Origin: a virus
DNA length: 64,000 nucleotides
Virus record (IMG/VR): IMGVR_UViG_3300011113_000675
Span: 78,444-142,443 of that record
Reading direction: 5' to 3' (one strand)
Below the pieces are notes generated by a model that saw only the letters and a list, made by a program, of their open reading frames with translations, was not told the DNA's origin and made no database searches. The number at the start of each line of letters is the position of its first letter. Position 1 is the stretch's first letter. The translations under genes and the position numbers were made by a program. Below, one piece after another: positions 1 through 31,478 of this stretch.

Positions 1-267
1 CTCTCCAGAATGAATCAAACCGAGTGTCTTACATACAGTTCTATCCGTATCAATGGATAGAAATGCTTTGTCAACCATTTTTAGGTTTTCGATAATGAAC
101 ATTCTTTCATCTTCGTCTTGGAACTCTTTACTACCTTTCAACTCTCTCTGTTTGTCGTTATTTACAATTACATAGAGTTTATCCCCATGTTCTTTGGCTT
201 TATTGAAATATTCAATATGACCTTTATGAACAGGATTAAAATATCCGCTTACAATTACAATTTTCAT
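1..267 (-). CDS. Cytidylyltransferase-family nucleotidyltransferase (partial, runs off window start)
   Basis: Not in ORF track; reads MKIVIVSGYFNPVHKGHIEYFNKAKEHGDKLYVIVNND..., with G.F.P.HxGH motif. Confidence 0.85.
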   Translation of the reverse strand, partial: MKIVIVSGYFNPVHKGHIEYFNKAKEHGDKLYVIVNNDKQRELKGSKEFQDEDERMFIIENLKMVDKAFLSIDTDRTVCKTLGLIHSGE

Positions 268-452
268 TTCGTTTCGTAGGTTAAAGTTTCTAATTCTAGT
301 TCACTTTCATAGAAATATGGACATGCCCAAACAGGTTTATCACATTTGAGTTTAACCATTCTTCCTTTGTTGTATCCAAGAGAAATGACTATTGCCCATC
401 CTGAATACTTTGTTTTAACTCTGTCTCCAACTTTTAATTCGCTAAATGTCAT
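264..452 (-). CDS. Hypothetical protein
   Basis: 62-aa ORF overlapping neighbours in a tight operon. Confidence 0.6.
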   Translation of the reverse strand: MTFSELKVGDRVKTKYSGWAIVISLGYNKGRMVKLKCDKPVWACPYFYESELELETLTYETK

Positions 453-750
453 CTTCTACAGTATCGAGTTCAAAGTTACTAAATTTTAATCCCCACATCA
501 AAGAAATCATTGACATTTGTTGTTCAGCCATTTTAGCATACATACGAAGTTCTTTCATAAGGTATTTTTTACCCCATTTTTTCCATTCTTCGTTTTGTTC
601 CATAGTCATAGTCCAATCAGTATACCAACTATCCTTACGGTCCTTGACATCGTCAAATGTTACGGGATGACCTGCGATCTCGAACATCTTGTTTATCATA
701 TCGACAACCATTTTTTGTTTTTTCTGTTCTTTAGATAATCTCGGTTTCAT
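442..750 (-). CDS. Hypothetical protein
   Basis: 102-aa ORF just downstream of tRNA-Cys. Confidence 0.7.
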   Translation of the reverse strand: MKPRLSKEQKKQKMVVDMINKMFEIAGHPVTFDDVKDRKDSWYTDWTMTMEQNEEWKKWGKKYLMKELRMYAKMAEQQMSMISLMWGLKFSNFELDTVEDDI

Positions 751-766
751 AATTTTTATTGTTTAG

Positions 767-840
767 AGGTCAAGAAGGGATTCGAACCCTTGGATACTTG
801 TTTTGCAGACAAGCCCCTTAAGCCACTTGGGTACTTGACC
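767..840 (-). tRNA. tRNA-Cys(GCA)
   Basis: Cloverleaf GGTCAAG/CTTGACC, anticodon arm CTTGT-CTGCAAA-ACAAG, T-loop TTCGAAT. Confidence 0.95.
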
Positions 841-846
841 GTTTTG

Positions 847-918
847 TGTGACCGAAGAGAATCGAACTCTTACATGAAGTGCCACAAACTTCCGCCCTAC
901 CATTAGGCCACAGCCACC
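847..918 (-). tRNA. tRNA-His(GTG)
   Basis: G-1 then GTGGCTG/CGGTCAC acceptor, anticodon arm GAAGT-TTGTGGC-ACTTC, T-loop TTCGATT. Confidence 0.9.
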
Positions 919-933
919 ATATAATCTTAATGT

Positions 934-1001
934 AAGTCAGGACGGGTTTCTAACCCGCTCTTCAGTTAATCACTGCGTGCTGCCATTTACACCACCTGAC
1001 T
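934..1001 (-). ncRNA. tRNA-like RNA (mimic 1), shortened anticodon arm
   Basis: Acceptor AGTCAGG/CCTGACT, D arm, T arm GCGGG-TTAGAAA-CCCGT; anticodon arm only CAGT-GATTA-ACTG. Confidence 0.65.
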
Positions 1002-1067
1002 AATTTTTAGATTTCTAAAACTCATCCCTAACGGGGTAAAGAAACTCCATCTTATTTGTTTTTTGCG

Positions 1068-1158
1068 TAGTCAGGACAGGATTCGAACCTGTAACTTTTG
1101 TCTTTTGGTTCCGAAAATCGGATTACTCACCAACACGTTACCCTTGCGTCACCTGACT
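1068..1158 (-). ncRNA. tRNA-like RNA (mimic 2), anticodon loop replaced by a bulged hairpin
   Basis: Same AGTCAGG/CCTGACT acceptor, perfect T arm ACAGG-TTCGAAT-CCTGT; central arm TTGGT-GAGTAA-TCCGA-TTT-TCGGA-ACCAA. Confidence 0.7.
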
Positions 1159-1168
1159 ATAAAGTGAA

Positions 1169-1245
1169 TGGTACTCCGTACGGGACTCGAACCCGTAAGC
1201 TCTCCCGTGAAAGGGGAGTGTCCTAACCAATTAGACGAACGGAGC
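1169..1245 (-). tRNA. tRNA-Glu(TTC), CCA encoded
   Basis: GCTCCGT/ACGGAGT acceptor, anticodon arm CTCCC-CTTTCAC-GGGAG. Confidence 0.95.
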
Positions 1246-1257
1246 TTGTTTGTCTTA

Positions 1258-1287
1258 CAAAGATACTACAATATTTCAAAGAACAAA
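1258..1287 (-). promoter_or_regulatory. Bacteroidota-type promoter and/or boxA-like element upstream of tRNA-Glu
   Basis: TTTG-N18-TATCTTTG; overlaps GTTCTTTGAAATATTG. Confidence 0.55.
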
Positions 1288-1296
1288 AGAAGTCAT

Positions 1297-1330
1297 AAAA
1301 AAACCCCGAACTTTTTTTAAGAGTTCGGGG
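1297..1330 (-). terminator. Intrinsic terminator (attenuator segments 3:4)
   Basis: CCCCGAACT...AGTTCGGGG stem followed by T7. Confidence 0.85.
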
Positions 1331-1370
1331 TTTGAAAAATTAGTTTTTACAAGTAAAAAAAATTTCTATC

Positions 1371-1460
1371 TTATGACATCCGAACTACAGGGCAAATAGG
1401 TTCATAACAACAATTTTCTTGTTGATTATTACTGATAATATTATGACTTGTAGTTCTCAT
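1371..1460 (-). CDS. Putative attenuator leader peptide MRTTSHNIISNNQQENCCYEPICPVVRMS
   Basis: 29-aa ORF right after a consensus promoter; carries segments 1 (GAACTACA) and 2 (TGTAGTTCGG) that pair alternatively with each other or with the terminator arm. Confidence 0.65.
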   Translation of the reverse strand: MRTTSHNIISNNQQENCCYEPICPVVRMS

Positions 1461-1476
1461 TGTTCTATAATTACTT

Positions 1477-1507
1477 CAAATGTATGAAATGTTTTAATTT
1501 TGTCAAA
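1477..1507 (-). promoter_or_regulatory. Bacteroidota sigmaA-type promoter for the leader peptide
   Basis: TTTG-N19-TACATTTG. Confidence 0.75.
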
Positions 1508-1554
1508 TGTTTTTTATGGATAGAACTTTTAATTCTATGCATATATTTATTATT

Positions 1555-1926
1555 ATGGAAAAAAAAGTTTGTTCAACCTGCAATGAAGAAAAACCATTGA
1601 CTGATTTTTATTTGCGCAATTCAAGAAATAATAAACCTTATGATAGATGTAAAAAATGTTTTAACCGTTATTGTGGTGACCGATGGATCACTAAAAAGAT
1701 TAACGCAATAATTTACAAAGGTTCTAAATGCCTTGATTGCTTTTTATCCTATCCTAATGAACCATATGTAATTTTTGATTTTCATCATCGTGAGCCAAAC
1801 GAAAAAGATTTCGATTGGGGTAAATTAAGATTGAAATCTGATAATACCATAAAGTCCGAATTAGATAAATGTGATTTACTATGTTCAAATTGTCATAGAA
1901 AACGACATCATTTATCTGATTTGTAG
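1555..1926 (+). CDS. HNH homing endonuclease
   Basis: CxxC zinc motifs, FDFHH...KCDLLCSNCHRKRH; start placed after TATTTAT motif; antisense within tRNA cluster. Confidence 0.85.
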   Translation: MEKKVCSTCNEEKPLTDFYLRNSRNNKPYDRCKKCFNRYCGDRWITKKINAIIYKGSKCLDCFLSYPNEPYVIFDFHHREPNEKDFDWGKLRLKSDNTIKSELDKCDLLCSNCHRKRHHLSDL

Positions 1927-1995
1927 CCCCACCAAGATTCGAACTTGGAAATCTTCTTTAGAAGAGAAGCGGTATATCCCTTTACCTATGGAGCC
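1924..1995 (-). tRNA. tRNA-Arg(TCT)
   Basis: GGCTCCA/TGGGGCT acceptor, anticodon arm CTTCT-CTTCTAA-AGAAG. Confidence 0.93.
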
Positions 1996-2011
1996 TTAAC
2001 CGATTATTGAA

Positions 2012-2176
2012 TTACTTCAATAAATCAATCTTTTTTGCGACTTCTTCGGCTTCCGCCATAAGTTTGTCCGATTGGGTTCTGTTGGAATGAGAAGCCTTAT
2101 AAGCTTCTTCCATCAACTTCTTATAAGTTTCTTGTAACCTTTCCTTTTCAGTTTTTTTCTTGAATATCCCGAACAT
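2012..2176 (-). CDS. Lacal_2735-family-like small protein (Flavobacteria type)
   Basis: Not in ORF track; MFGIFKKKTEKERLQETYKKLMEEAYKASHSNRTQSDKLMAEAEEVAKKIDLLK resembles this family as recalled. Confidence 0.7.
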   Translation of the reverse strand: MFGIFKKKTEKERLQETYKKLMEEAYKASHSNRTQSDKLMAEAEEVAKKIDLLK

Positions 2177-2187
2177 AATTTAGAATT

Positions 2188-2501
2188 AACACTATCGTCT
2201 TTGAAAGTTTATTTAACGTTTATGCCTGACGGCTAGATAATTTTCTTTCAAGTTTATCAAGACGTGAATCCATTGTTCGATAAATGTCATCGACAATTCT
2301 ATCACGATCTCTCAGTTGATTTTCAATTTCTCTTGCAAGAAATTGGTGAATCTGTTGTATTTCTTCTTTTTGTTTATTCACCCTAACAAAAGCCATAACC
2401 GCAACCACCGCAACTGCAATGACCACAATTATAGACATTCCTAAAATAAATGATATTAAATCCATATGATTTTCTCCTTTATTTCAAAGAACGATAGTGT
2501 T
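2188..2501. repeat. 19/20-nt inverted repeat bracketing ORF 2220-2465
   Basis: AACACTATCG-TCTTTGAAA (2188-2206) vs TTTCAAAGAACGATAGTGTT (2482-2501). Confidence 0.8.
2220..2465 (-). CDS. Membrane-anchored coiled-coil hypothetical protein
   Basis: N-terminal TM helix then charged heptads. Confidence 0.7.
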   Translation of the reverse strand: MDLISFILGMSIIVVIAVAVVAVMAFVRVNKQKEEIQQIHQFLAREIENQLRDRDRIVDDIYRTMDSRLDKLERKLSSRQA

Positions 2502-2503
2502 TG

Positions 2504-2587
2504 TATCAGGAGAGGGAATCGAACCCTCACTCGCGTTGGCGAACAACATTTTAAGTGTTGCGTGTCTACCTATTCCACCACCCCGAC
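2504..2587 (-). tRNA. tRNA-Leu(TAA)
   Basis: Long variable arm, anticodon arm CAACA-CTTAAAA-TGTTG; TACATTTG promoter box upstream. Confidence 0.95.
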
Positions 2588-2612
2588 ATTGTTTTACAAA
2601 TGTAATCGATTT

Positions 2613-3263
2613 TCAGATACTTTCAACCCGATGTTTCATGATTTCACAATACTTCTCGTCGACATCATAACTAACAGAATTAAACCCCAACTCTTTGGCA
2701 ACTTTACTGGTGGTTCCACTTCCACCAAAAACGTCAATGATTGTTTGGTTTGGTTCTGCAGTTGTTAAAATAATTCTTCTGATGACTTCCTCAGGTATCT
2801 GACAAGGGTGTTCGGTCTTTTCCTTACTCACATTCTTTACCTGATTGATTTCCCACCAATCATAAAGTTTTGCTCCCGTCTTTCCTTCGGCAATTCGTTG
2901 TTGAATCCTTTTATCTTTGAGATTTTTGTATGGTTGTCTAACCTTTCTAAAATCAGGCTTACATCCCCACCATGAAATTAAACGACTTTGTTTCCCTGTG
3001 TTTGAATTATACACCCAACAAACAACCTGTTCACACTTGGCCTTTATTGCTTTTGGTAACAAGTTGATTGTTTCTTCGGGGTAATGAATGATTACACAAG
3101 GGGTTGGGATTTTGGATAATAGTTCAATATAATCCTCTTCACTTAATTTGTCTTTGTATTCGTTGTACGAATATTCTTGATTATAAGGTGGGTCTGTAAT
3201 TGTTAATCCTTTTGGTATGACGCAGTTTCTGAAGTCGTCATTGATAATTGTTGTTTCCACCAT
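2613..3263 (-). CDS. DNA N6-adenine/N4-cytosine methyltransferase (beta class)
   Basis: ITDPPY catalytic motif, HPCQIP, DVFGGSGTT SAM-binding motif. Confidence 0.9.
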   Translation of the reverse strand: MVETTIINDDFRNCVIPKGLTITDPPYNQEYSYNEYKDKLSEEDYIELLSKIPTPCVIIHYPEETINLLPKAIKAKCEQVVCWVYNSNTGKQSRLISWWGCKPDFRKVRQPYKNLKDKRIQQRIAEGKTGAKLYDWWEINQVKNVSKEKTEHPCQIPEEVIRRIILTTAEPNQTIIDVFGGSGTTSKVAKELGFNSVSYDVDEKYCEIMKHRVESI

Positions 3264-3280
3264 AAAATTAATTAATCACC

Positions 3281-3979
3281 TTAAAATTCTTCTTCCCAAA
3301 TTGTATTGGACTTGTCTATAATAGTGTTGTATGTGTGTTTTAATATAACAGTTTTTTCCTTAAAATCAAACTCAAATTCTCCTTGAGATCCTTCATTAAT
3401 TTCCCAACCTCCGAAGTTTTCTTCTAATTCTTTATAACACCAATTTTCTATTTCGGTTGGTACAGGTTCACCATTATCGAAATCCGACTCGATATATCCA
3501 CTATCTCCCCCTCCGTTATACTTCAAGGTCATGTAACCATCTTCAGGAATTTCCATATCTTCAAAGACCCCTTTTTCTTCCCACTCTTCAATCATATCAT
3601 CGTATTCAACTCCACTCGTGTCTCCTTCATCATTATAACTATAGATGTGAGTTAAAGATATTTCTTTTTTTACAGAATCAATTGTAATTTCGAATCGTTG
3701 ATAATCCATGTAAGCACTATCAGGCAATTCTGTTTCTAAATCTTCATCTTCAAAATAAAAGATAATTCTTTTCAGTATTGGTACAAGTCCGTCTGGAATT
3801 TCTGCAACATAATTATTGTCAAAGTGGGTTGGAAAGTCCTCATCACTGTATGAAATTTGTTCATGATCTGGTTCCATTTCGAATTGAATATCTCCATATT
3901 TCATTCCCAATGAAGCAAGATATCTCGCTACTCTCCCTAAATATTTTTTTTCTTCTGGTAATAGTATATTTTCTGCCAT
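3281..3979 (-). CDS. DUF6878-like acidic protein
   Basis: YNGGGDSGYIE...GGWEINEGSQGEF motif; start placed after TATTTAT. Confidence 0.6.
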   Translation of the reverse strand: MAENILLPEEKKYLGRVARYLASLGMKYGDIQFEMEPDHEQISYSDEDFPTHFDNNYVAEIPDGLVPILKRIIFYFEDEDLETELPDSAYMDYQRFEITIDSVKKEISLTHIYSYNDEGDTSGVEYDDMIEEWEEKGVFEDMEIPEDGYMTLKYNGGGDSGYIESDFDNGEPVPTEIENWCYKELEENFGGWEINEGSQGEFEFDFKEKTVILKHTYNTIIDKSNTIWEEEF

Positions 3980-3990
3980 ACAAATAAATA

Positions 3991-4344
3991 TCAGTCTTCG
4001 AATTCTAATTTGACTGTCTTCAACATCCACTGTGGTCTTTGACTGGACGCCACATTATTAACCCACTCTTTTGCTGACGGAATGTAATTGTTACAATCCT
4101 CTTTTACATGTTGTTCTCCAACATAACGGGTGTACACCGTTTTACCATCGGAGTTTTTGAATTCGGTCCCGAACCTTTTTTCCATTTCAAAAATTCCTTC
4201 ACTATGGTGTCTGAACATTCTATGTAAGGAATCACCAAACCAAGATTTGGTCTCATCCAACCATTCGTGGAGGTGAATATAGTCTTCGGGTTTTCCACCA
4301 AATTTTTTGGCAGATGATTTAGCATGTAAGTTTGGATGTGCCAC
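3991..4344 (-). CDS. DUF6915-like His-rich protein
   Basis: MAHPxxHAxSSAKKFGG.PEDY..LHEWLDETK...HRMFRHHSEGIF...GEQHVKED pattern. Confidence 0.7.
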   Translation of the reverse strand: MAHPNLHAKSSAKKFGGKPEDYIHLHEWLDETKSWFGDSLHRMFRHHSEGIFEMEKRFGTEFKNSDGKTVYTRYVGEQHVKEDCNNYIPSAKEWVNNVASSQRPQWMLKTVKLEFED

Positions 4345-4353
4345 AATAAAACT

Positions 4354-5070
4354 TCAATTTATTTTTTTTATGTAAATTTTAATATTGTTTCCTGCAAAAT
4401 AATGGTTTCCAATCAATTCAAAATTAGTTCTGTTAGCTAAAACTTCATTATAAATGTTTGCTCCTTTTCCGAAAATAGGATATTCTATTTTTTTCCAAAT
4501 TTCATTATTTGGAAAAACCCACTGTAAATTCGTATCTTTCATCCAATTATCATCGATTAAGATAATTCCACCTTTTGGCATAAGATTTTGTATGGATTCA
4601 AATTCTTTCCAATGATGAAGTGTTGAAGGAAAAGGATTGAACAAGTCCAAGTCAAAACTATCCAAATGAACTATGTTGGGAACAAATGGGGGTCTTTTGA
4701 GAAATTCGACGGAATCCATACAATAAGTTTTGTAATTAATCCCATGAAAATTTTCCGAAAAAATTTCCTCACTTTGTTCACATGATACACAATCAGTATC
4801 AACCGAAGCCATCCGACCTCCGTAATTATGGACTAAACTTCCTAAAAAAAATCCGAACAAACCGTAACCTACTTTTCCACTTGTACCAGTTTCAATTAGA
4901 TTTATTTCGTCAAAATCGAAATGTTGTGAAATTAAATCTTTAAAAATTTGAATCTGATTAACTCTGTTTTGAACCAAGAAGGAATTTTCTGAGTCAGAAA
5001 CATGCTTACTCATGAAATTTTTGTACTCCATTTCAGCATGATTCAGTGAAAAAATTAATTTATCTGACAT
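4354..5070 (-). CDS. Class I SAM-dependent methyltransferase
   Basis: [29 protein letters not shown] motifs. Confidence 0.75.
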
Positions 5071-5089
5071 ATTAGTTTTTACAATTATG

Positions 5090-5174
5090 CAGAGGAGGAC
5101 GGATTCGAACCCCCGTTACCTTTCAGTAAAATAGTTTTCAAGACTACCGCCATAAACCACTCGGCCACTCCTCT
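5090..5174 (-). tRNA. tRNA-Ser(TGA)
   Basis: AGAGGAG/CTCCTCT acceptor, G73, long variable arm, GTAGT-CTTGAAA-ACTAT. Confidence 0.92.
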
Positions 5175-5667
5175 ATTTTATTACTTTGTACCCAAAATTA
5201 TGTAAAACATCTTTACATAATTCTATAAATTCTTCAACACTTAAATTACCTTTAGCAAAATTTGCTTCGGGTGTTGCAACACCCAAGTTTTCAAAAGTAG
5301 ATTCACCACCCTTGGATACAGGAACAATATGGTCAAATTGATATTTAGTCACATCCGACGTATCAATTTCCCTACCCGATAAATAACATTTCGTTACTGA
5401 GTCCAAATACTCTTGGATTTTGACTCTATCGAAATATTTCGAATTATACGTTATGTTTTCACCTTTATATCTATCGATAAAGTGCTCCTGTTTTTTTAAC
5501 CAAGGATGTAGATTTCTTTGTTTTACCACTCTCTGATACGCTTTTTCTTTTTGTCCTAATCCACAATGGTATGATATTGTAGAACGAGAACATCCAAGTT
5601 CTTTTTCTATTTGTTTGTAACTTTTTCCCTCTTCCCTAAGATTTAGTATCTGTTTTTTTAATTCCAT
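5173..5667 (-). CDS. HNH endonuclease with N-terminal HTH
   Basis: [24 protein letters not shown]; [11 protein letters not shown]...NL...ANFAKG. Confidence 0.85.
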
Positions 5668-5793
5668 ACATATAAATATAAGGTTCGAAACAAAAAGATA
5701 CGAACTTAAACACAAATAATAGGAATGAGTATTTGCAACTGCCCATTCCCTTCAAAAGACCTACCCTGGTACGTTCTAGCGTGGTAAGTAATT

Positions 5794-5868
5794 TGGAGCT
5801 CCCACTCGGAATCGAACCAAGTTATCATGATTACAAGTCATGCGCATCGCCAGCAATGCTTTAGGAGC
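5794..5868 (-). tRNA. tRNA-Thr(TGT), CCA encoded
   Basis: GCTCCTA/TGGGAGC acceptor, CATGA-CTTGTAA-TCATG. Confidence 0.95.
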
Positions 5869-5876
5869 TTTTTCTA

Positions 5877-6605
5877 TTATTGGTTTCTTAATCCTCTGAT
5901 GTAAACATCATTTCTCGAATTTAGATTCAACACCATACCACGATCAGTTGTTGTGTATATCCTGTATTGTCCAGCGGGAATACGATTACCAGTATAATTA
6001 ATCACTACTTCTGACAAAACATTATCAGTTTTAATATCTTTTGGAGATCCAGTCCCTTCAACAATACGTATCCAAGTTTGTCTTTTTGTATCGTTGTTCA
6101 TAGCATTAATTGGTATTAGAACTACGATATAAGAAAAACTATCATTAACAGTATTTTTTGCAATTTTTACTGTTTTGAAATTAAATGCTTGGACAGGATT
6201 ACCAAATGTGTCAATTCCTCCACTTGTTTGGGGAACATCAACTTGCATAATTTGTGGTAATCTACCATCAATCCAGTGAGGCATATTAATATAATTTGAA
6301 AAATTTGGAAAATTGGATTTCATGTTCTCTCCAAGACCAACCCCATGAAACCCAACGAAGGGTAATCTTCCGGTGAATGGTACAGTCATCAAATAGTTCC
6401 TAATCATCGTATGTTTCGATCTTGGTTCAACGAAAATATACGCTCTCAACGATGTTTGTGTACCACCAACACTCGATGTTGACATAGTTGCATGTTCCAT
6501 GTTAACAACTGGATTGATTTCACTACCAAGAATATCTTCTTTCGAACAAGATGTTAGAAATACTAAAAATGTGAGGAGAGACAGTAATAAGTGTTTAATT
6601 TTCAT
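5877..6605 (-). CDS. Lipoprotein of unknown function
   Basis: Signal peptide with lipobox LTSC. Confidence 0.7.
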   Translation of the reverse strand: MKIKHLLLSLLTFLVFLTSCSKEDILGSEINPVVNMEHATMSTSSVGGTQTSLRAYIFVEPRSKHTMIRNYLMTVPFTGRLPFVGFHGVGLGENMKSNFPNFSNYINMPHWIDGRLPQIMQVDVPQTSGGIDTFGNPVQAFNFKTVKIAKNTVNDSFSYIVVLIPINAMNNDTKRQTWIRIVEGTGSPKDIKTDNVLSEVVINYTGNRIPAGQYRIYTTTDRGMVLNLNSRNDVYIRGLRNQ

Positions 6606-6644
6606 GATTGTTTTGTTTTATTGTGTTTTTATCGAGTTTCAAAG

Positions 6645-6718
6645 TGGGCCTGGTAGGAATCGAACCTACTACCTTCACATTATGAGTGTGCCGCTCTAAC
6701 CTAGTGAGCTACAGGCCC
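6645..6718 (-). tRNA. tRNA with CAT anticodon, probably Ile2
   Basis: GGGCCTG/CAGGCCC-A acceptor typical of Ile2; GCACA-CTCATAA-TGTGA; TACCTTTG box upstream. Confidence 0.85.
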
Positions 6719-6841
6719 GATTAATGTAAATACTAATTACGTTTGTTCTTTAATCAACATGACAAAGGTAATAAAATTTTTAATTTACAACAACTTTCGT
6801 TTCTAAAAAAAATAAATTACTTTTGTCGAAATATTTGATAA

Positions 6842-7327
6842 ATGAGTACAGTATTAGTTTTGAACTCTGATTACACTCCTTTGAATGTAACAAGTGTACA
6901 GAGAGGATTTGTTTTGGTCACCAAAGGAAAGGCGGAAGTGTTAAGGTCGGATGAGAATCCAATTGTAACAGGTTACAAGACGTTTATACGACCCGTTATC
7001 ATACGCCTATTGAAATATATCAGACATAGAACAAGGCTCAATAAACCGAATCGTAGTCGTATCTATAAAAGGGACGGATATGAGTGTGTTTATTGTGGGT
7101 CAAAAAAGAATCTAACATTAGACCACGTAATACCCAAATCAAGAGGAGGTTCCAATGAATGGACAAACTTAGTTACTTGTTGCTCAAAGTGTAATAGAGA
7201 TAAGGACAACAAAACTCCTGAGGAAGCTAAAATGCTAATGAAAAAACCAGCATACGAACCACCAATAATGTATGATAATGTGGTATTATTAAATGTCTGG
7301 ACAGATTTTCAGAAATCTTTTGTATAA
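6842..7327 (+). CDS. HNH endonuclease (McrA-like, VLVLN-type)
   Basis: RDGYECVYCG...LTLDHVIPKSRGG...NLVTCCSKCNRDK; TACTTTTG box upstream. Confidence 0.9.
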   Translation: MSTVLVLNSDYTPLNVTSVQRGFVLVTKGKAEVLRSDENPIVTGYKTFIRPVIIRLLKYIRHRTRLNKPNRSRIYKRDGYECVYCGSKKNLTLDHVIPKSRGGSNEWTNLVTCCSKCNRDKDNKTPEEAKMLMKKPAYEPPIMYDNVVLLNVWTDFQKSFV

Positions 7328-7366
7328 AATAAAAATTGTATTAACTTTGTGGAAAATAAATTAGAT

Positions 7367-8047
7367 ATGAACATCGGACAAGAATTTCAAAACTATTACG
7401 TAAAACATTTGGGTAAGGGGTCCTTGGACCTTCACAATTTCTCAAGTCAAATTCAATCATCAATGACTCCTTATATTCTTGAAGAACGAGAAATGAGAGC
7501 AACTCAAATCGATATCTTCTCAAGATTGATGAGAGACAGAATTATTTGGGTGGCTGGTCCTGTGGATGATAGAATGTCCACTATTGTACAAGCACAGTTA
7601 ATGTTTATGGACAATGTTGATAAGACGGACATTACAATGCACATTGATAGTCCAGGTGGAAGTGTGAAGTCAGGATTGTCTATGGTTGATGTAATGAACT
7701 ACATTGCTTGTGATATCAGAACTGTAAACACGGGTATGGCGGCATCTATGGGTTCCGTATTGTTGGGGGCAGGAACCAAAGGAAAGAGAAGTTCATTAAG
7801 ATTTTCGAGAACGATGTTACACCAATCTTCTGGAGGATTCGGAGGAAATATTCAGGATGCTGAAATCAGTATGAAAGAATGGCATAAATTGAATGACATT
7901 CTATTTAATCTTCTTGGTGAGTACTGTGGAAAAGACCCTGAACAAGTTAAGTTAGACGCTACCCGAGATTTGTGGTTAGATAGTGAACAAGCTCTCGAAT
8001 ATGGAATTATTGACGAGATTGTTAAAACGAAAAAGAGGGGTAAATAA
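7367..8047 (+). CDS. clpP: ATP-dependent Clp protease proteolytic subunit
   Basis: DIFSRLMRDRII, IDSPGGSV, AASMGSVLL (Ser), MLHQ (His), RDLWL (Asp). Confidence 0.95.
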   Translation: MNIGQEFQNYYVKHLGKGSLDLHNFSSQIQSSMTPYILEEREMRATQIDIFSRLMRDRIIWVAGPVDDRMSTIVQAQLMFMDNVDKTDITMHIDSPGGSVKSGLSMVDVMNYIACDIRTVNTGMAASMGSVLLGAGTKGKRSSLRFSRTMLHQSSGGFGGNIQDAEISMKEWHKLNDILFNLLGEYCGKDPEQVKLDATRDLWLDSEQALEYGIIDEIVKTKKRGK

Positions 8048-31385: not shown

Positions 31386-31478
31386 TGGTGGCTGGGAGTG
31401 GGTTCGAACCACTGGCTCATCGGTGTTCACCCGATTGCTCTACCATGAATTCCGAAGAACTCCTGAGCTACCACAACC
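31386..31478 (-). tRNA. Aberrant tRNA-Phe(GAA)-like gene with D-loop hairpin insertion, CCA encoded
   Basis: ATCGG-GTGAACA-CCGAT anticodon arm, AGTGG-TTCGAAC-CCACT T arm, GAGTTC-TTCG-GAATTC inside D loop. Confidence 0.7.

Follow-up and report, generated by a model that had tools for sequence, protein, structure and literature searches.

Does the DNA in front of a phage tRNA array decide when the array is transcribed? To our knowledge, the regulation of phage tRNA genes is almost unknown, and the purpose of carrying them has long been debated. The roles proposed for such genes include codon compensation and escape from tRNA-cleaving defences (PMC10264068, PMC11464382). The window, by which we mean the whole stretch of 64,000 nucleotides that was analysed, makes up the final 64 kb of a 142-kb record from an uncultured virus, and it carries a promoter, a short ORF and a terminator ahead of a block of tRNA genes. 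Comparison with related loci makes it likely, in our judgement, that this element is a ribosome-dependent leader-peptide transcription attenuator, which gates the phage tRNA array and is coupled to a host-type boxA.

All attenuator parts lie on the minus strand. In the order of transcription, the locus consists of tRNA-Arg, an HNH endonuclease gene on the opposite strand, the promoter P1, the ORF, a long hairpin, an A/U-rich spacer, the terminator, the box of a proximal promoter (P2) and the tRNAs. The module is compact, with a size of about 250 nt. The features upstream and downstream of the P2 box are as follows.

1995-1923, minus strand: tRNA-Arg, the upstream end of the locus in transcription order
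1507-1926, opposite (plus) strand: HNH endonuclease gene (PHROG, E 7e-31)
1507-1477, minus strand: P1 promoter, with the -33 element TTTG at 1507-1504, a 19-nt spacer and the -7 box TACATTTG at 1484-1477
1460-1371, minus strand: leader ORF of 29 codons, with ATG at 1460 and TAA at 1373-1371, reaching from segment 1 to segment 2
1456-1449, minus strand: segment 1, formed by codons 2-4, which supplies the 5' strand of the anti-antiterminator helix
1424-1408, minus strand: central 6-bp hairpin, codons 13-18, the tip of the long 1:2 hairpin
1389-1380, minus strand: segment 2, which pairs with segment 1 (via 1389-1382) or with the terminator 5' arm (via 1386-1380) and lies 7 nt before the stop codon
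1332-1297, minus strand: intrinsic terminator, with an 11-bp stem within 1332-1302, a 9-nt loop and seven T at 1303-1297; its 5' arm is segment 3 and its 3' arm segment 4
766-1245, minus strand: the regulated block as a whole, made up of the next five entries
1245-1169, minus strand: tRNA-Glu (ARAGORN and Rfam)
about 1158-1066, minus strand: first tRNA-like RNA (fold of 1168-1066, z -1.3)
about 1000-931, minus strand: second tRNA-like RNA (cloverleaf-like fold of 1000-924, z -3.1)
917-846, minus strand: tRNA-His (ARAGORN and Rfam)
840-766, minus strand: tRNA-Cys (ARAGORN and Rfam)

P1 belongs to the Bacteroidetes type of promoter, with TTGACA-16-TACATT as an alternative reading, and the leader ATG lies 16 nt downstream of its -7 box. 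Counting the strict motif TTTG-N17-21-TANNTTTG gave 15 occurrences for the window, compared with 4.3 +/- 2.3 for shuffles; a sigma-70 scan was uninformative (36 sites, 33 expected). In most relatives, a -7-like box and a -33-like TTG are found upstream of the leader ATG. P1 starts right after tRNA-Arg in relatives without the HNH gene, and since tRNA-Arg adjoins P1 in the closest loci (L003 and L006), this gene is, on that comparison, an insertion in the window phage. The array itself extends past the window start, where genes for Tyr, Gln, Ser(GCT) and Ile tRNAs follow. Rfam searches of the locus yielded nothing but tRNAs above threshold; the sub-threshold matches to NsiR1 and IsrM fall on the terminator and were rejected as chance.

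Segment 1 is paired with segment 2 when 1472-1290 is folded to minimum energy (-42.9 kcal/mol, z -4.7, with none of 200 shuffles as good). The terminator hairpin has a folding energy of -16.3 kcal/mol, and a simple terminator scan missed it only because the loop limit of the scan was 8. Positions 1386-1380 of segment 2 are complementary to 1328-1322 in the terminator 5' arm (duplex -10.7 kcal/mol, shuffle p 0.012). This helix has 7 bp, as cautioned in the first-pass annotation, a description of the locus made from the sequence alone, which had proposed an attenuator with these same alternative pairings. Its minus-strand coordinates and pairings proved exact, base for base. The claimed TTTG-N19 promoter ahead of the ORF and the unannotated 29-aa ORF itself are both present, the terminator that it placed at 1330-1297 and called strong has the 11-bp stem followed by seven U, and its tRNA-Glu, tRNA-His and tRNA-Cys were each found by two programs. 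The two RNAs that it described as mimics of tRNAs do have tRNA-like folds, but neither is called by ARAGORN or Rfam.

Alternative helices in related elements

The GenBank phage collection contained no relatives of the locus; matches there were of tRNA-Glu size only, with 6% coverage. In IMG/VR, 47 loci were identified via the 102-residue protein encoded downstream of tRNA-Cys, and further loci were retrieved using one leader pattern and three patterns derived from the conserved box that follows the terminator. The first set fetched by pattern was biased, as its pattern held the ATG and the central hairpin, and further sets were fetched via the conserved box (boxA, see below) alone. To count as an element, a locus had to combine an intrinsic terminator with the conserved box and to have tRNA genes no more than 700 nt downstream; uncultured viral contigs yielded 42 distinct elements of this kind. 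All related elements stand ahead of tRNA arrays. They comprise at least seven leader lineages that cannot be aligned with each other: type 1, which includes the window, type 2 (L119, L160, L178, L124), L250/L259, L189, L073, L072 and L166. Kinship among contigs inflates raw counts, and we therefore relied on tests across deep lineages.

In 41 of the 42 distinct elements, the interval from a promoter-like box to the terminator contains an ATG-initiated ORF of 18-36 codons, compared with 27% of shuffled leaders. According to the first-pass annotation, an ORF and alternative pairings that were not conserved in relatives would refute attenuation. What we found is that the ORF, the exclusive 1:2, 2:3 and 3:4 pairing and the position ahead of the tRNAs are kept in 41 of the 42 elements, and that they are kept even in those leader types that have no alignable sequence. 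In type-1 relatives, the distance from the ATG to the central hairpin is fixed at 12 codons, with a single in-frame insertion of 3 nt.

The two competing helices were analyzed separately in each lineage. For the 2:3 helix, the terminator 5' arm and the start of the loop were matched to their best pairing site in the leader, with 1000 dinucleotide shuffles per lineage; for the 1:2 helix, the same procedure was applied to segment 2 and the 5' part of the ORF. Across seven deep lineages, complementarity exceeded that of the dinucleotide shuffles both for segments 2 and 3 (Fisher p 2.5e-6) and for segments 1 and 2 (Fisher p 3e-4). In one lineage, L189, the 2:3 pairing was not significant (p 0.49). 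For each of the 17 representatives, the end of the best 2:3 duplex falls in the range from 29 nt before to 12 nt past the ORF end. In every lineage, unconstrained folding pairs segment 2 with the first 5-12 codons to give a long hairpin, and the 2:3 helix forms when the 5' part and the terminator 3' arm are masked. The antiterminator of the window (7 bp, -10.7 kcal/mol, versus -16.3 kcal/mol for the terminator) is the weakest among the lineages.

Comparison of related tRNA loci, along the lines of the alignment suggested in the first-pass annotation as a check, revealed both a kept leader and compensatory changes. In L191 and L259, an A in segment 2 faces a U in segment 3 while segment 4 still has a G, which is a lineage-specific compensation, and segments 2, 3 and 4 change together in L250 and between type-2 subgroups. 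Among 27 relatives, 98.8% of cells are paired in the central hairpin and 99.2% in the terminator, which is kept in all relatives; by column counts, pairing in the type-1 alignment is high (83-99%). The central hairpin was part of one search pattern, and it is kept also in relatives found only through boxA. Two top pairs of the 1:2 helix switch between G-C and A-U across relatives. In the alignable type-1 set the segments show little variation; column-wise covariation of the 2:3 helix is consequently weak, and 31 of 500 shuffles attain its score.

boxA and the proximal promoter

The conserved box that follows the terminator overlaps the box of the proximal promoter, and a similar element is located further upstream on the same strand.

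1287-1258, minus strand: P2, proximal promoter, with the -33 element TTTG at 1287-1284 and the -7 box TATCTTTG at 1265-1258; its spacer is boxA
1284-1269, minus strand: boxA, predicted rRNA-type loading site for Nus factors, GTTCTTTGAAATATTG
2492-2477, minus strand: second boxA-like element, matching 14 of the 16 positions of the boxA 16-mer, with tRNA-Leu ending 10 nt upstream and an 81-codon ORF starting 11 nt downstream

We searched 61 genomes of Flavobacteriales, the presumed host clade, with the boxA 16-mer and obtained 15 matches, 14 of which are in rRNA operons. Seven of these are located 88-126 nt before the 5' end of 16S, downstream of a TAnnTTTG promoter, and the other seven are in the spacer after tRNA-Ala and before 23S. 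These two sites, in the 16S leader and in the 16S-23S spacer, are where boxA is classically located. Compared with GYTCTTTAANA, the E. coli consensus (PMC5725501), the window boxA agrees at 10 of the 11 positions. The 16-mer is present as a single exact copy in the 142-kb record and is nearly invariant across lineages whose leaders have nothing else in common. The second boxA-like element occupies the same place in L003, L006, L063 and L129. In Bacteroidales, the 16-mer was found 20 times in Dysgonomonas gadei and nine times in Bacteroides sp. 519, and no 16S start lies within 1.5 kb downstream in the eight inspected copies of those 29. Among the matches listed for the bare 16-mer scan, most are due to chance.

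The first-pass annotation described positions 1258-1287 as a second promoter-like box that could give basal expression, and listed this as a caveat. The box is indeed present, but most of it is the rRNA-type boxA, which had not been recognised, and a boxA inside the presumed second promoter strengthens, rather than weakens, the case for read-through. The P2 box ends 12 nt before tRNA-Glu. Its -7 box (TA, two variable bases, TTTG) looks like that of a real promoter, and it is found in 30 of 37 elements, with TA and TTTG invariant. In the other seven, where boxA abuts the tRNA, and in further relatives it is missing; relatives without it include L160, L175, L072, L250, L259 and others, in which the tRNA starts 25-57 nt after boxA. 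The P2 spacer was also considered as a general class of phage promoter and rejected, with only one exact copy in the window.

Judged by its sequence, P2 can bypass the gate in the window phage. The transcripts from the two promoters would differ: boxA is on the P1 RNA that passes the terminator, and since it lies upstream of the likely P2 start, it is absent from the P2 RNA. The relatives that have no P2 can make their tRNAs only by passing the terminator, and boxA is there necessarily on the tRNA precursor. Relatives with a terminator, boxA and tRNAs and no proximal promoter thus indicate that read-through would be the working route. Together with the presence of boxA only on transcripts that have passed, they provide what we see as the strongest structural argument that the terminator would serve as a gate and not as an end.

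The same boxA allows another explanation, namely that the element is a leader like that of an rRNA operon and nothing else, in which P1 is the plain promoter of the array, the hairpins are boxB-like, the ORF is incidental and unsensed, and the terminator is a leaky or insulating stop for transcripts arriving from upstream tRNAs. The boxA is real in this sense, and host rRNA leaders also have a hairpin just before it, in one case followed by a short T run (L224). Moreover, tRNA genes are found directly upstream of P1 in relatives, and L246 has a terminator, boxA and tRNAs without an ORF. Such a leader, however, does not account for ORFs in all the other elements, for the recurrent complementarity of segments 2 and 3 in unrelated leaders or for the frame- and position-specific match of codons to tRNAs described below, and a boxA that comes after the terminator cannot itself carry polymerase through it. 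We consider this explanation unlikely.

Leader codons and downstream tRNAs

A recount of the window leader gave three Cys, two Glu and one His codons, the numbers reported initially, along with a proposed match to the downstream tRNAs. This match holds at the level of the family, where it is in frame and upstream of segment 2, but not for the window alone, where it does not rise above background: six of 28 codons match Glu, His and Cys, versus a mean of 7.3 with the arrays of other phages, and 14 of 28 is reached only if the Tyr, Gln, Ser(GCT) and Ile tRNAs further downstream are counted. None of the last five codons of the window leader, which overlap segment 2, is cognate.

For the family, we counted those leader codons that the leading tRNAs of the downstream array (eight at most) can read, and shuffled the tRNA arrays among 27 representatives. 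The count was 231 of 744 codons, compared with 167 +/- 10 with arrays permuted (p <= 5e-5). When the set was reduced to eight deep lineages, each represented once, exact permutation gave a p value of 1-3e-4. The +1 and +2 frames of the same leaders showed no codon match (p 0.15-0.47), nor did long ORFs of the same loci (p 0.26-0.28). The match therefore belongs to the reading frame and not to composition or phage codon usage, and these controls rule out the latter as its source. It is also confined to the region upstream of segment 2, where 35% of codons match (p 1.2-1.7e-4), versus 16% from segment 2 to the stop (p 0.2-0.7). This position fits the mechanism outlined below, because a stalled ribosome must sit there to free segment 2.

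Individual lineages follow the same trend. The leader of a lineage whose array has Ile and Phe first and lacks tRNA-Glu contains no Glu codon, and codons for just these amino acids abound in a leader that precedes Cys, Gln, Gln, Pro, Glu and Glu tRNAs. Such shifts of leader content with array content bear on the possibility of a general sensor of translation stress, in which the gate opens whenever ribosomes slow down on the leader and codon identity is secondary; the causes could be ribosome-targeting toxins or antibiotics, host shut-off, or arrest by the nascent peptide at the kept Cys-Trp region. Its architecture would be the same as that of the attenuator, the Cys-Trp and His-Ile positions recur in several lineages, and each amino acid is represented in a leader by no more than one to three codons, in contrast to his and phe leaders with their runs of codons. 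The kept Cys-Trp codons, however, double as the 3' arm of the central hairpin and may therefore be constrained as RNA, and together with the joint change of leader and array content this makes a purely general sensor quite unlikely.

Least probable, and in our view very unlikely, is a self-contained small gene, in which P1 makes an RNA of about 175 nt (a small RNA, or the message of a 29-residue peptide) with its own terminator beside an independent P2: P1 and the terminator do bound a compact unit with a very stable fold, P2 alone can drive the window tRNAs and the N-terminal pattern of the peptide is loosely kept across relatives, but the C-terminal frame changes between close relatives and most substitutions are non-synonymous, no Rfam family is found at threshold, tRNAs in relatives without P2 depend on passing the terminator, boxA past the terminator would be purposeless, and the match of codons to tRNAs is left unexplained. 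The frameshifted C-termini also led us to reject a small protein as the explanation. A T-box riboswitch was rejected too, with no T-box match at E <= 1 in positions 1-8000.

The proposed gate and known systems

The leader-peptide attenuator that we favour would work as follows. The RNA from P1 would begin with the 29-codon ORF, followed by the terminator, boxA and the tRNA genes. A ribosome that reaches the stop codon smoothly would cover segment 2, so that the terminator forms and transcription ends at about 1297; with no ribosome loaded, segment 1 would sequester segment 2 and the terminator would likewise form. When matching charged tRNAs are scarce, a ribosome stalled in codons 3 to about 20 would cover segment 1 and leave segment 2 free, and this would pair with the terminator arm and let polymerase read through. 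Consequently, tRNA output is probably higher when ribosomes read the matching codons slowly. The read-through RNA would carry boxA, on which host NusB/NusE are predicted to load, and polymerase loaded in this way should be able to transcribe the several kb that follow, made up of tRNA genes, which are not translated, and of small ORFs. Once phage tRNAs accumulate, stalling would end and the gate would close, which amounts to negative feedback on tRNA supply. In the window phage, P2 would add a basal route whose RNA has no boxA.

Leader-peptide attenuators include trpL, hisL, the multivalent ilvGMEDA leader and, in E. coli, the pheM leader of the pheST synthetase operon. With these the phage element shares a promoter-proximal short ORF, mutually exclusive 1:2, 2:3 and 3:4 helices and a terminator before the regulated genes. 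As in the trp and his type, the regulatory codons are upstream of segment 2, and a single leader samples several amino acids, as that of ilvGMEDA does. Unlike all of them, it would regulate tRNA genes themselves and not biosynthetic or synthetase genes, so that the loop would sense and correct tRNA supply directly. It is also viral and found in a Bacteroidota setting (TAnnTTTG promoters, no Shine-Dalgarno), and it differs in that segment 1 starts from codon 2, segment 2 is inside the ORF, each amino acid has one to three codons and boxA follows the terminator.

In rRNA antitermination, boxA acts with NusB/NusE and also with NusA, NusG and SuhB, and phage lambda has its nut sites. The phage 16-mer at 1284-1269 is identical to the Flavobacteriales element of 16S leaders and 16S-23S spacers, and as in lambda, the phage would borrow Nus factors of its host. 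In contrast to both systems, its boxA precedes a tRNA array, has a putatively regulated terminator immediately before it and lies across the spacer of a proximal promoter; unlike in lambda, no N-like protein or boxB is implied. Ribosome-stalling attenuators of the ermK type control antibiotic-resistance genes, and leaders of this kind have been found by Term-seq. There, too, a ribosome stalled on a short leader ORF frees an antiterminator and polymerase passes, but the stall comes from a ribosome-bound drug, whereas leader codons that track the downstream tRNAs point to decoding speed as the signal in the phage. T-box elements likewise sense the state of tRNA and control a terminator/antiterminator switch. 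Unlike the phage element, however, a T-box binds uncharged tRNA directly and without translation, is about 200 nt or longer, has specifier and T-box motifs and precedes synthetase or amino-acid genes.

A full-text literature search found no account of attenuation, leader peptides or boxA ahead of phage tRNA genes, which is not proof of absence. Leader-peptide attenuation itself is already known; what appears to be new is its application to tRNA genes, in a virus, and its combination with boxA. Starvation or host anticodon nucleases may be the trigger, as proposed in the first-pass annotation; the nuclease idea is speculation and fits current thinking on phage tRNAs (PMC10264068, PMC11464382). 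Tentatively, and with more doubt than confidence, one may extend this to Bacteroidota phages at large, whose tRNA arrays would then be self-correcting supply circuits with a multivalent leader written in the codons of the array, a boxA borrowed for processivity and a gate that serves as a sensor of tRNA-targeting immunity. If so, the gate would fire when anticodon nucleases (PrrC-, PARIS- or Schlafen-type) or host shut-off deplete tRNAs, and replacement tRNAs would be switched on only when needed.

Being compact, the module could serve as a reporter of tRNA availability in Flavobacterium. Its boxA would be a case of a non-lambdoid phage borrowing the rRNA antitermination machinery of its host for stable-RNA synthesis. 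If the gate is real, it would be the first case of leader-peptide attenuation controlling tRNA genes, and the output of phage tRNAs would be set by demand. The debate on why phages carry these genes would then become directly testable, with the leader stating which shortages matter to the phage.

The surroundings of the leader ORF and the tRNA-like RNAs

Between tRNA-Arg (1995-1923, minus strand) and P1, the promoter upstream of the 29-codon leader ORF and the tRNA array, lies a gene in the opposite orientation to the leader, which matched a PHROG profile (E = 7e-31) and had no Pfam match:
1507-1926, plus strand: HNH endonuclease gene
Loci L003 and L006 lack this gene, and there tRNA-Arg directly adjoins P1; this arrangement marks the HNH gene as recently inserted, with the leader kept intact. 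Because the PHROG alignment begins at residue 17 of the product, the true start is probably the Met codon at about 1555.

Leaders of related phages were also compared with the tRNA genes that follow them. In L092, L191 and their relatives the residues Val-Phe, Lys, Cys-Trp-Tyr and Met of the leader are ordered like the tRNAs encoded downstream (Val, Phe, Lys, Cys, Trp, Tyr, Met); outside this group colinearity of leader and array is only partial. In L188, L204 and L191 just 7 nt separate the end of a -7-like box from the ATG of the leader, and the resulting mRNAs may therefore be leaderless or almost so.

Two tRNA-like RNAs, called by neither ARAGORN nor Rfam, share an acceptor-stem sequence and lie between tRNA-Glu and tRNA-His:
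931-1000, minus strand: cloverleaf fold (z -3.1) in which the anticodon-arm position has a stem of 4 bp and a loop of 5 nt
1066-1158, minus strand: long insert (fold z -1.3)

A second boxA-like element and other signals of the tRNA region

The rRNA-type Nus-factor site (boxA) that separates the leader terminator from tRNA-Glu has a possible counterpart in the window:
2477-2492, minus strand: boxA-like element, 10 nt 3' of tRNA-Leu and 11 nt 5' of an 81-codon membrane-protein ORF
Its conservation was seen in four loci (L003, L006, L063 and L129), and its presence suggests that Nus-modified polymerase transcribes the entire tRNA region. Two further signals were noted:
6760-6800 (within), minus strand: TAccTTTG box, about 40 nt upstream of tRNA-Met (6718)
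31386-31478, minus strand: ARAGORN tRNA-SeC call (anticodon TCA, 93 nt), distant from the tRNA region
The former, around which no leader ORF, terminator or boxA was evident, may be the start of the entire tRNA region, and the latter may be spurious or else represent a suppressor-like tRNA.

Further contexts of boxA in phages and Bacteroidales

Locus L246 has the order promoter, structured leader, terminator, boxA and tRNAs, with no ORF of any kind in the leader, and in L245, L249 and L257 boxA lies 5 nt downstream of a TAtcTTTG box, and no tRNA is present within 1.2 kb. Judged from these arrangements, boxA is used by these phages in further contexts.

The boxA 16-mer occurs 20 times in the genome of Dysgonomonas gadei and nine times in that of Bacteroides sp. 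519 (loci L221-L230; reversed 16-mer control, 0). None of the eight copies read was followed within 1.5 kb by a 16S start. Several copies lie about 20-30 nt past promoter-like boxes, in repeated leader sequences and at contig ends. Operons led by boxA may be common in Bacteroidales.
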